The notes under the pieces: generated by a model
Database searches by the model: none
Seen by the model: only the letters and a program-made list of their open reading frames with translations
What the model was told of the DNA's origin: nothing
Part shown: positions 19,654-60,006 of the stretch, piece by piece
Numbering within the stretch: position 1 is the first letter of the stretch
Layout: every line of letters starts with the position of its first letter
Made by a program: the position numbers and the translations under genes
Assembly: GCA_000004695.1 (NCBI GenBank)
Contig: CM000151.3
Span: forward strand, 1,920,001 to 1,984,000
Direction: 5' to 3'
Source: Dictyostelium discoideum
Lineage: Eukaryota
DNA length: 64,000 nt

Positions 19654-22329
19654 ATGATTTCTAAATTATATACATATTTAAGTAAAATGGATAGTCACAA
19701 TAATAATAATAATAATAATAATAATAATAATAATAATAATAATAATAATAATAATAAAATAGAAATTGAATTGCATGAGAAATTATTTTGGAAAATTTTT
19801 AGAAATAAATATATATTTAATGAGATATTCTCAAATTTTCAATGTTTAGGAATTAATAAATTTAGATATTATGATATTATTCATATATCATGGATGTTGG
19901 ATAATGGGTATATAAATTTAATTAAAGATAAAATTGAATTTCAAAAACATATAGTTTTTACAACTCATTTACCATCAGTAATTCAAAATAAATTTAGTGA
20001 ATCAAATTTATTTTTAAAATCAATGGATGAAACATTTGAAAGATTATTTAAAACATTTAAAGATAACAAAAATATAAATAATTTAGATGGGGACTGTACA
20101 AATAATTTAGTTTATAAATTTTATTTAAATTTATTTTCAGAAAATTATGAAAAAAACCATCAATTTGATTATTCTAATTTATTATTAATTTCAACGAGAT
20201 GTGGTAATTTAATTGTAAATAAAATTTTATATAAAAAAGGTTTTGAACAAGATACTTTAAAAAATAAAACTTTCGGAATAAAGTTATTTGAAAGTATAAT
20301 GAAATCAAATTCTTTAAAAATGATTAATTCATTTTTATCAACTTCATCATCATCATCTATAATAAAAGATAATAAAATATTTGATTACTATAAGAATCAA
20401 AATTTCAAAAATGATTTTAAACCAAATATTTATAAATTATTAAATGCATTATTTGATACAAATGAAATAACAAATAATTTAAATTTAAATGATAATGATG
20501 TTTTACAAATTATTTTAAAAGCAATCATTGAAAAATACTTTCCATTTAGTGATCCATTTTATTCAAATTTCAAATTAAATAATTTAATTGAATCAATTTT
20601 ATTTGCAATTAAAATAAAAATAATTAATGGTGATTATAAAATTAACAATTGTTCCTATGACCAAAATGAAATTAATTTAATTGATTTTTCAAATTCAATA
20701 AAATTAAAATATAATTCATTATTAAAATTATCATTAAGAAAATTAATTAATTTTAATAATAATGAATTTAATAATGAATTTAAATTATTATTAGAAATTT
20801 ATTTATTTAAAATAATGAAAAAACCAAGTCCACCATTTTTATATTATTTAAAATATTATGATAATATAAATATATATGATTATAATGAAAGTGATGAAAA
20901 ACTAAAAGAAAATGTTAAATTTATAAAAATATTGGTTGATAATAAATATGATAGTATTTTACCAAGATTTAAAAGATCAGTTTCAAAATCAAAATTATTT
21001 AGACAATCATTAAAACATGGTAATTATAATTTATTATTATATTCAGATTTAAATCAAATTAATCAAGAAACCTATAAAGAATGTGTATATGGTTTATATG
21101 AGAGAAAATCAAAAACTCCAAAATTATTATTCAAACATTGTAAAAATAATAGAGAAAAGCAATTTAAATTCTTAGAGGAAATTTCAAAGAATCAAATTAA
21201 AATTCATCCAATAACAATGATTTGTATGTTAATTGAATTACAAGATATTGAATTAATAGAATTTTATTTAAAATCAGTTGAATCAATTGATAAATGGTTA
21301 AAAGAGGTAAATCCAACACCTACAATTTCAATTGCACATTCAATTGAAACTATTGAAATGTTAGATTATTGTTTTAATAAATTTAATAATCATTTCAATA
21401 GAATTTCAATATCATGTTGGTATGAATATGGTCGTATTAATTTAATTAAAAGATATACTGATTTACGAATTCAATCAAATTGTGTCAATGATTCCATTAA
21501 AAATATACTATTACCATTTGATTCAGAATTCTTACTACATAATAGAAAAACCTCATTCAATGGTAAACTTTTACAAACAATGTGTTGGTTTATTAAAATT
21601 CAAAATTTACAATTATTTAGTGGTAATGGTGATGGGTCGCCATTATCAAATGAAAACGCTGTAAATGAATGTATAGCACTATGTAGAGATAAGAATTTAT
21701 ATTTAAATGAATTGATATTTATATTATCAAAAACAAAAACAATTTTGGATGGAAATAAAATAATTAAAAAAAAAAAATATAGTGATAATATTATCAATAC
21801 TTTAAAAACAAATATTGGTCACAATAGTAGTGGTGAACTTTCTAAATTTTCAGAATTTGTAAATTGGGCTTACTATTCTCAATCGCCATCATATATAGAT
21901 TTAAATAAATTTAAAATCCAACCAATAAATTTATATTACCAAACTAGTGAATTTAATAAATTAATGGGTTATATTGAAAATGAATTTAAAGAGTATACAA
22001 ATGAAAGATTCTTTTCAAGTAAAATTTGTAAACAATTATTATTTGAAATAGGTAGACTTGGTAACATTTCAGGTTTTAGAAATTTATTTAATTATTTACC
22101 TCAATCTATTGATGCAATTAAAGAGGTTTTAACAATTTCAGCACAATATGGAAGAATTAATATATTTCAACAATTGAATGAAATTTTAAATCAAGATCCT
22201 GAAATTACTGAAAATTATTTAGGAATTGATACTCATTTTAAACATTTTCTAATTAATGTAACTACAACAAATAGAAATTTTTATCTTTTATATTACTTTA
22301 ATAATCATTTTTCAATTATATACAAATAA
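19654..22329 (+). CDS. Member A of a lineage-specific paralogous family (891 aa). It is N/K/I-rich, with an N-terminal poly-Asn tract followed by the conserved motif LFWKIFRNKYIFNEIF and an ...ISWML... block.
   Basis: Single long ORF. The N-terminal region aligns with the ORFs at 40673, 43629 and 56953 ([LI][FY][FW]K[IV]F[RHK]N.[FY] ... [SK][WL][YW]M[LI]). C-terminal segments weakly resemble degenerate ankyrin-like repeats (LTISAQYGRINIFQQLNEIL). Confidence 0.6.
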   Translation: MISKLYTYLSKMDSHNNNNNNNNNNNNNNNNNNNKIEIELHEKLFWKIFRNKYIFNEIFSNFQCLGINKFRYYDIIHISWMLDNGYINLIKDKIEFQKHIVFTTHLPSVIQNKFSESNLFLKSMDETFERLFKTFKDNKNINNLDGDCTNNLVYKFYLNLFSENYEKNHQFDYSNLLLISTRCGNLIVNKILYKKGFEQDTLKNKTFGIKLFESIMKSNSLKMINSFLSTSSSSSIIKDNKIFDYYKNQNFKNDFKPNIYKLLNALFDTNEITNNLNLNDNDVLQIILKAIIEKYFPFSDPFYSNFKLNNLIESILFAIKIKIINGDYKINNCSYDQNEINLIDFSNSIKLKYNSLLKLSLRKLINFNNNEFNNEFKLLLEIYLFKIMKKPSPPFLYYLKYYDNINIYDYNESDEKLKENVKFIKILVDNKYDSILPRFKRSVSKSKLFRQSLKHGNYNLLLYSDLNQINQETYKECVYGLYERKSKTPKLLFKHCKNNREKQFKFLEEISKNQIKIHPITMICMLIELQDIELIEFYLKSVESIDKWLKEVNPTPTISIAHSIETIEMLDYCFNKFNNHFNRISISCWYEYGRINLIKRYTDLRIQSNCVNDSIKNILLPFDSEFLLHNRKTSFNGKLLQTMCWFIKIQNLQLFSGNGDGSPLSNENAVNECIALCRDKNLYLNELIFILSKTKTILDGNKIIKKKKYSDNIINTLKTNIGHNSSGELSKFSEFVNWAYYSQSPSYIDLNKFKIQPINLYYQTSEFNKLMGYIENEFKEYTNERFFSSKICKQLLFEIGRLGNISGFRNLFNYLPQSIDAIKEVLTISAQYGRINIFQQLNEILNQDPEITENYLGIDTHFKHFLINVTTTNRNFYLLYYFNNHFSIIYK

Positions 22330-22696
22330 TTATGAAGAATTAAATAAAGCATTAAAAAAATAAAATTTAAAACAAAACCACAATAAAAAACAAATTAATT
22401 CATTTCATTCTTTTCTAGATTAAATAGTAAATTTAATTGTTTTTTTATTTTTATTTTTATTATTTTTTACTAAAAAAAAGAAAAAAAAATAAAAAATAAA
22501 AAAAAAAATTAAAATAATTATTTATATATCTAGACGATTTTATTTTTGTTTTTCAAATAAATAGTTTTTGGCGCCACAAAAAATGCTTTTTTGAATTTTT
22601 TTTTTTTTTTTTTTTTTTTTTTTTTTTTTTTTTTTTTTTTTCTCATCCATTCATTCAATTCAAGTAATAAAATTTATTCATCTAATAATAACAAAT

Positions 22697-59900: not shown

Positions 59901-60006
59901 AAACAATGCAATTTCATCCAAAGATTATTATATTTTAAATTATTATTTTAAAAAAGGTTATTTACATAAAGATGAAGATGGTAATTTTAAATTAATAAAA
60001 AATTAA
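56953..60006 (+). CDS. Member D of the LFWKVF-motif paralog family (about 1017 aa).
   Basis: The ORF reported from 56869 begins in a poly-T tract (MIIFFFFHFLF...). The realistic start is the in-frame ATG at 56953 (MNEDLTKLKREIIQQQPMDYNEILFWKVFKNNFLKRQIFYLM...FKWMIKNNLLDLIKFKL). There is an (AAT)n poly-N tract at 57530-57615. Confidence 0.65.
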   Translation: MNEDLTKLKREIIQQQPMDYNEILFWKVFKNNFLKRQIFYLMLNMDIEFQNHSKYFTENRIKFENVYSFKWMIKNNLLDLIKFKLEKNQYIDIRNSDICNFIKSVKILGGPSKITNNHLIIFKLLINQYQILFENQHVRLLVRLDNHQFLQILLSESIKKFKITSSHISFSIKKCSTLTLDLLNKYINKDNNNNNNNNNNNNNNNNNNNNNNNNNNNNNNNYINNDKDKIITNYIKTNSIEWCLQYNNNDKDSMISYILENKIFLYNQYGFHNYYKYDLEIFVVNNDKAYNLNQCIPTTTATEEVTTMVKELEINSKISDYEKIKQFIKSIVKKENSMKLYSFYYFKYYELIEKDDDFKGFNDSGFLRLNTVGILNKIDNLIIDLKNNKINTNDIINFIIKFLNEIKWNNWRKNKVLLNRIRILIFEIVNDNKELYEKSITKLKQSLNIQLYNLFEFPKEWNSNMISLTIEPMKSNDILLMDKNNYWLNAIDRINNNNSNKSIATPFIIELKKKLWKNLIAFDQDEKINKINNKNNVKINNNNNKNNNFNLYERFQNENNQKENLKFKSTIINFSQFLDISNPFPLETDIKESFETIFESINEFDITKIKSVINSIDIFSPPISRQFSRSWEAFIKKFFNNQFELIQDDDQLEIVKNYLKFWLTLNPKIVKKTSSSSSTTATTTTAISTKPKRPTRPLPNYQFIINYLFKILIKFKGISISELIEIKNQIKKKSILLENSVYHIGFYLNFKSSKYFAYFKNDSLLGNKANLNDLNKICTFEFIFEEGRSFDEILETIIINSTSITDNTINYLININRIKLFRKYFPIYLKNDRYFIFNELLQIGFTLLKKLINYSTNLEYIQSNLNEYLQQIELKVLDNKIDIIIFKKILSNILGYSIILNRKDIVSFIINQYNIKEISNDFTYWNNYPMIEYICENHPNVDISKPFQTAFDNSLPFLSKSIPIFDILIKYKPSLFIITPYNLNNAISSKDYYILNYYFKKGYLHKDEDGNFKLIKN

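Follow-up and report, generated by a model that had tools for sequence, protein, structure and literature searches.

Proteins with ankyrin repeats (PF00023, PF12796, PF13637) are built from paired-helix repeats of about 30-35 residues. The FNIP/IP22 proteins of Dictyostelium and mimiviruses (PF05725) form another large repeat family centred on amoebae, and often begin with a motif, '..F..IWRN.YL', similar to the one described below. In the F-box receptors of the Skp1-cullin-F-box (SCF) ubiquitin ligases, such as Dictyostelium FbxA/ChtA and the F-box/ankyrin proteins DDB_G0285411 and DDB_G0272020 (PMC9485057), a variable repeat domain is preceded by a short conserved module at the N-terminus. 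The F-box proteins of Dictyostelium are acknowledged to be difficult to predict (PMC9485057). In this study, a stretch of 64,000 nucleotides from Dictyostelium discoideum (assembly GCA_000004695.1, contig CM000151.3, positions 1,920,001 to 1,984,000 of the forward strand; hereafter the window, in whose own coordinates all positions are given) was analysed, in which an initial annotation had pointed out four open reading frames (ORFs) with a common N-terminal signature. As claimed, all four are on the plus strand, at 19654-22329 (gene A), 40673-42031 (gene B), 43629-48170 (gene C) and 56953-60006 (gene D); the ORF starting at 42368, which is the tail of gene B, is referred to as E.

The four genes were found to share a conserved N-terminal module, herein called the head, in front of a divergent, probably repeat-bearing body, and we give somewhat better than an even chance to the reading that they belong to a superfamily of ankyrin-like adaptors, each consisting of head and repeat body, with Skp1 as the most likely shared partner. 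The demonstrated part of this reading comprises homology, family size and taxonomic span, the head-plus-ankyrin architecture and an all-helical ankyrin-like fold. The N-terminal 65-85 residues were aligned pairwise by BLASTP under SEG masking and composition-based statistics, giving E-values of 4e-9 for C-D, 1e-4 for A-D, 7e-3 for A-C and 2e-2 for A-B. An independent hidden Markov model (HMM) was then constructed from 51 relatives at other loci, the window proteins and their orthologues being left out, and was run unfiltered on all stop-to-stop ORFs of the window, which served as composition controls; the scores were 74.6 bits for D, 65.2 for A, 65.1 for C and 31.3 for B, and the next ORF of the window reached 5.2 bits. 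The homology of the N-terminal blocks, which the initial annotation had proposed and had left to stand or fall with the masking of compositional bias, is borne out by both the masked BLASTP and the independent HMM.

With a four-sequence profile, 1.84 billion representative proteins were scanned in full by HMMER; of the clusters, formed at 50% identity, 202 passed E<=1e-3 and 14 passed E<=1e-10. The match starts within the first 30 residues in 132 of the 159 proteins that were scored locally (comprising the listed matches, part of the members of their clusters, and the window proteins). The 20 clusters looked up by name, except for one entered without an organism, are from D. discoideum, D. cf. 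discoideum, D. citrinum, D. dimigraforme, D. purpureum, Tieghemostelium lacteum, Heterostelium album and Cavenderia fasciculata, genera which we take to cover all four major groups of dictyostelids, and are annotated as 'hypothetical' or, in UniRef, as 'Ankyrin repeat-containing protein'; the dictyostelid origin of the organism, as originally proposed, is supported. The existence of a large superfamily across social amoebae is secure, as is, for the family as a whole, the head-plus-ankyrin architecture. The AX4 proteins DDB_G0274845 (Q555N1) and DDB_G0271466 (Q55B22) match the head profile at the N-terminus and thus belong to the same superfamily, but differ in being paralogues, not orthologues, of the window genes, and are annotated as hypothetical only. 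A word-indexed homologue search with the same four-sequence alignment gave no match, not even P0001, the orthologue of gene D, which scores 122 bits with the four-sequence profile; this outcome was taken as a limit of the word index and the search was replaced by the full HMMER scan, the negatives of word-indexed searches with low-complexity eukaryotic queries being not trustworthy.

The pattern proposed for the first block matched all four ORFs in the six-frame translation of the window, and the one further match, at 62346, is spurious, lying in a stop-riddled non-coding frame. The match to the head profile begins at residues 4-60 in each window protein. The other elements of the proposed signature hold in part: the second block is present as quoted in A, C and D but in B is diverged and split by an insert (ISISELLSLH...SLIELLKYKI), and the Asn tract said to stand directly before the motif is found in A (residues 16-34) and C (residues 24-53) but not in B, where the motif starts at residue 4, nor in D. 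The description of the remaining parts as extremely low in complexity was overstated, the low-entropy fraction being 0.14 in A, 0.16 in B plus E, 0.18 in D and 0.33 in C.

As to the repeat body, Ank_2 was detected by Pfam in 14 of the 61 full-length relatives (best E 2e-35) and no other family recurred among them, the head being covered by no Pfam family in any of the 61. In the members with canonical repeats, the ankyrin array opens a few dozen residues past the head and takes up the greater part of the protein. These relatives resemble known ankyrin-repeat proteins in bearing bona fide Pfam ankyrin right after the head. The differences from known ankyrin-repeat proteins are that the window family bears a conserved head of its own without a Pfam model, that the repeats of the window proteins are degenerate and broken by homopolymer tracts, and that the four window proteins are below Pfam detection, no Pfam family being found in them. 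A family ankyrin profile was prepared from a consensus ankyrin seed iterated only within the family, the set consisting of the family and the window ORFs (about 165 proteins), and this profile reached 56-89 of these proteins. Within the window it matched B at residues 122-192 (23.4 bits), E (27.2 bits) and D at residues 926-1015 (22.3 bits). In the PDB, the family profile weakly matches the ankyrin repeats of EHMT1 and designed ankyrin repeat proteins (DARPins), with E 0.013 and above.

Structure prediction, which the initial annotation had suggested as a check, gave for residues 15-205 of D a confident all-helical, ankyrin-like fold: the AlphaFold2 model, based on a 60-sequence alignment, has a predicted local distance difference test (pLDDT) score of 89.7 and contains ten helices in pairs. 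The modelled fold consists of stacked helix-turn-helix repeats that superpose on solved ankyrin domains, sharing with these a repeat length of about 30-35 residues and the pairing of helices. In a Foldseek comparison with the PDB, no match fell below E=1. The earlier suspicion of degenerate ankyrin-like repeats therefore holds for the family, for B and for D (by profile, and for D also by model), but A and C stay at or below about 14 bits.

Within the head, the first block is modelled as two helices (6-16 and 18-30) followed by a loop that varies in length and is predicted with less confidence, and the second block as the first short helix pair (55-60 and 64-72). Conservation of at least 90% was seen at residues L10, F11, N17, I24 and K70 among 56-60 members whose identity is otherwise about 20%, and the head is conserved far more strongly than the repeat body. 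Two types of loop were distinguished in the head alignment, a long one carrying 'IEY..NRIKFK' in C and D and a short one in A and B. As judged from these alignments, the head is an uncatalogued conserved N-terminal module.

Because F-box receptors likewise place a constant N-terminal module before variable repeats, the head was examined for an F-box. No F-box was detected by Pfam in the four window proteins (E<=1), in the 61 members (E<=0.01) or in 56 isolated heads (E<=10). The hhalign comparison of the head with 30 Dictyostelium F-boxes from PMC9485057 gave a probability of 0.6%, the PDB profile search with the head retrieved no F-boxes, and no F-box was present among the fold neighbours of the model, in which the three-helix F-box fold was not encountered. 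In every test run (Pfam, hhalign, PDB profile and fold), the head falls outside the F-box family. Besides these negatives, the window family differs from F-box receptors in having neither the LPxE(I/L)L nor the (C/S)KxW signature and in the variable loop within the head.

A connection of another kind came from the proteins co-immunoprecipitated (co-IP) with Skp1 of D. discoideum, which are presented in PMC9485057 (Figs S3/S4) together with segments that its authors judged 'F-box-like'. With the head HMM, the string from DDB_G0294633 (ankyrin body, slug co-IP) scored 23.2 bits, matching the head in its second half, and that from DDB_G0268782 (body listed as leucine-rich repeat (LRR)+, vegetative co-IP; MDKLFQSVFNNIYISRLIYSIL) scored 22.0 bits, matching in the first block. 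The string from DDB_G0293774 (LRR/FNIP body, vegetative and slug co-IP) scored 12.2 bits, and canonical Dictyostelium F-boxes 2-5 bits. The head motif within the F-box-like segment of three Skp1 co-IP proteins is thus a further likeness to F-box receptors, and the weak first-block match of about 12 bits in the FNIP-type interactor DDB_G0293774 is a likeness to FNIP/IP22 proteins; the latter differ in that the body of the family with the LFWKVF head is helical and ankyrin-like, not LRR-like, and no FNIP repeats were detected by Pfam in the window proteins or in the 61 members. These matches suggest a first block that can also be combined with bodies other than ankyrin and whose carriers travel with Skp1.

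The following organization is proposed. The head of about 75-100 residues would consist of a helix-turn-helix, 'LFWKVFxNKYLxxxIF', a variable loop and an ankyrin-type helix pair, 'SLxWMxxNxxxxLLKDKLKxNxY', and behind it would follow a long divergent ankyrin-like array interrupted by low-complexity inserts. From this arrangement we infer that the members may act as modular protein-protein adaptors, the invariant head binding a common partner or scaffold and the variable repeat body binding diverse targets. Skp1 would be the most likely common partner, in which case the members would serve as non-canonical SCF substrate receptors. Docking to Skp1 is only hinted at by the co-IP strings, and that the head docks to Skp1 is, taken by itself, rather unlikely in our estimate, though a serious candidate. 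The more specific proposal, in which the head is a non-canonical element for docking to Skp1, specific to dictyostelids and acting as a cryptic F-box surrogate that is missed by F-box models and common to ankyrin, LRR and FNIP repeat proteins, is considered doubtful. The initial annotation had called the function unknown; the analysis narrows the range of candidate functions. If the head docks to Skp1 or to another hub, the known set of ubiquitin-ligase substrate receptors of Dictyostelium would be greatly enlarged and a concrete mutable motif would be available, and if it is a cryptic F-box surrogate, social amoebae would possess dozens to hundreds of unrecognised SCF receptors, including the four in the window.

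Several points weigh against the adaptor reading and its Skp1 part. The four window proteins gave no Pfam ankyrin match when the threshold was relaxed to E<=1, and A and C do not rise above about 14 bits even with the ankyrin profile adapted to the family. Within the head, the two blocks are joined by a loop of about 10 to 35 residues, a variation that is a poor fit to the canonical three-helix F-box. The Skp1 strings are short, loop-trimmed peptides that were machine-read from a PDF supplement, and the 40-residue string of DDB_G0294633, rebuilt from the loop-trimmed figure, led to no candidate protein, the scores being those of the strings. The F-box-like class is called speculative by its own authors (PMC9485057). 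The gene identifiers of three AX4 members are absent from the searchable literature, and a description of the family was likewise not found there.

The main rival to the adaptor account is that the head is a mere structural N-terminal cap, made of one or two degenerate ankyrin-like repeats and serving to nucleate or seal the solenoid, in which case the proteins would have no common partner, would be independent binders and would stand in no relation to Skp1 or SCF. In both AlphaFold2 models that were made with the head of D, the helix pair of the second block is continuous with the repeat pairs downstream, and an ankyrin-derived profile weakly matches residues 54-103 of D. A register of 'SLxWMxxNxxxxLLKDKL' over the ankyrin 'AxxnGHxEixKxL' was also obtained when the head was compared with ankyrin repeats of the family by hhalign, but this register is not significant (probability 1.7%). 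The first block is conserved much more than any repeat of the body, which is unusual for a mere cap, and its presence at the N-terminus of the Skp1 co-IP protein listed as LRR, DDB_G0268782 (22 bits), argues for a separable unit. On this balance we consider a mere cap possible, though on the unlikely side. Should the head be only a cap, the window genes would belong to an ordinary, hitherto unnamed family of degenerate ankyrin proteins, and the gain would be a profile that gives a name to several hundred 'hypothetical proteins' of social amoebae.

The four genes had originally been read as a small, four-member, lineage-specific family, locally clustered and evolving fast as an accessory gene set. 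The arrangement of four members on one strand inside 40 kb, two of them adjacent, is in favour of this reading, which we nevertheless judge very improbable. The number of members is not four, as the 202 clusters indicate, and the family is not narrowly lineage-specific, the sampled members being from species of the D. discoideum group, D. purpureum, Tieghemostelium, Heterostelium and Cavenderia. The four are not a local cluster of recent duplicates either: the paralogues are just 24-36% identical even in the head, each resembles proteins encoded elsewhere more than it resembles its neighbours, with a similarity to these outside relatives that reaches beyond the head, and unrelated genes of homeodomain, RhoGAP, BRCT, BTB and NmrA-like types are interspersed among them. 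Since closer relatives are located elsewhere and unrelated genes lie between, the window genes are four dispersed members of an old superfamily and not a local four-gene expansion. Fast evolution was not confirmed: in comparisons with the D. discoideum orthologues, in which the synonymous rate (dS) is about 0.07-0.13, the ratio of nonsynonymous to synonymous rates (dN/dS) was 0.38 for D and 0.16 for the C-terminal 355 residues of C, the latter indicating purifying selection, and both values are inside the range of neighbouring genes (0.03-0.57). Judged by these rates, D and C are real genes under constraint and not unusually fast.

That the shared blocks are a non-homologous by-product of AT-rich codon bias, as might be thought from the G+C content of the window (13-31%) and from a motif built of AT-codon residues (rich in F, K, N, I, L and Y), has a practically negligible probability, because the match stays significant in composition-corrected BLAST, about 26-70 bits separate the four ORFs from all others of the same composition, the conserved Trp and Met positions are not AT-favoured, and the fold is predicted confidently.

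Gene A, as defined by ORF and translation, encodes 891 residues with a short-loop head located behind the Asn run, the head (LFWKIFRNKYIFNEIF ... ISWMLDNGYINLIKDKIEFQKHI) being placed at 19768-19962 (+) by the HMM alignment. Its nearest relatives are P0023, P0151 and P0072, and its window paralogues are more distant. A SAP-like motif (...ELIRVAKSLKLKPNGKKSEIIERIKKFI...) was noticed 60-380 residues upstream of the head in a subfamily including P0023, P0151, P0139, P0009, P0105 and others, to which the nearest relatives of gene A belong; this motif is sub-threshold, scoring 21-22 bits with Pfam SAP against a cut-off of 23.9. Upstream of gene A there is no room for a SAP-like exon. The directly preceding ORF, at 6982-19413 (+), is uninterrupted over 4143 residues, with no Pfam family at E<=0.001. 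The ORF at 22697-24250, also adjoining gene A, is not a member of the family and gave no Pfam match.

Gene B was found to be interrupted. Its 5' part, 40673-42031 (+), has 452 codons and ends at an in-frame TAA at 42029-42031 (+), identified from the sequence and from global alignment with P0003, a protein of 'Dictyostelium cf. discoideum'. The 3' remainder continues in the same frame at 42032-42949 (+) and contains the ATG-initiated ORF E (42368-42949). The ORF at 40673, initially taken as a complete gene, is therefore in frame with E, separated from it by this lone stop codon. The joined gene of 758 codons aligns end to end with the intact 758-residue P0003 at 88% identity in the global alignment, and the conservation runs on unaltered past the TAA. 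Because this intact orthologue has Glu (presumably GAA) at the position of the stop, gene B is nonsense-interrupted in this genome, and the TAA may represent a recent pseudogene, a polymorphism or a sequencing error. The interrupted gene, as against its intact orthologue, would mean that gain or loss of members in the family continues even among very closely related lineages. The head of B (MDILYFKVFKNIYINKKIW ... SLIELLKYKIKRGDIILF), starting at residue 4 with no Asn tract ahead, lies at 40673-40900 (+), with the insert breaking its second block and the HMM match proper spanning 40673-40798. The best ankyrin-like segment of the gene is located in the 3' remainder, at residues 56-132 of E (27.2 bits).

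Gene C encodes 1513 residues, rich in homopolymer inserts of N, T, G and Q, with a long-loop head (LFWKVFHNKFLLYYIL ... SLYWMLYHKQFTLVIDKLISNQVVY) at 43794-44018 (+), as given by the HMM alignment. Gene D encodes 1017 residues from the ATG at 56953, its start Met being the same as in the orthologue P0001, and its long-loop head (ILFWKVFKNNFLKRQIF ... SFKWMIKNNLLDLIKFKLEKNQYI), which is the segment modelled by AlphaFold2, lies at 57004-57231 (+) by the HMM alignment. The closest database match to ORF D is a D. discoideum hypothetical protein of 87% identity. No exact sequence match was detected for six window proteins in a collection of 15 billion proteins.

The 3' 17 kb of the window (47068-64000) is collinear with the D. 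discoideum contig JBTAPG010000035.1 (GCA_054859355.1, herein L001) at about 88% nucleotide identity, with dS of about 0.07-0.13 over eight genes, a divergence which places the window in a lineage near to the sampled assemblies labelled D. discoideum but separate from them. The model of P0001, at 10001-13012 of L001, is without a 27-residue in-frame stretch (SMISYILENKIFLYNQYGFHNYYKYDLE) of the window ORF 56953-60006, a stretch that is kept in P0002; the gap is either a spurious intron call or a strain deletion. Downstream of gene D, the NmrA-like gene at 60098-60997 (-; E 5e-101) showed the highest dN/dS of the region, 0.57. Near this gene is a small ORF for a 2-oxoglutarate (2OG)-Fe(II) oxygenase at 62040-62885 (-), with a Pfam score of 26.8 against a cut-off of 27; the domain class takes in prolyl hydroxylases such as the Skp1 hydroxylase PhyA (PMC9485057), with no link to the head family shown. 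Between the NmrA-like and the oxygenase genes, many staggered BLAST alignments point to a tandem-repeat array at about 61340-61860 of the window (14246-15143 of L001), which differs in length between the two genomes.

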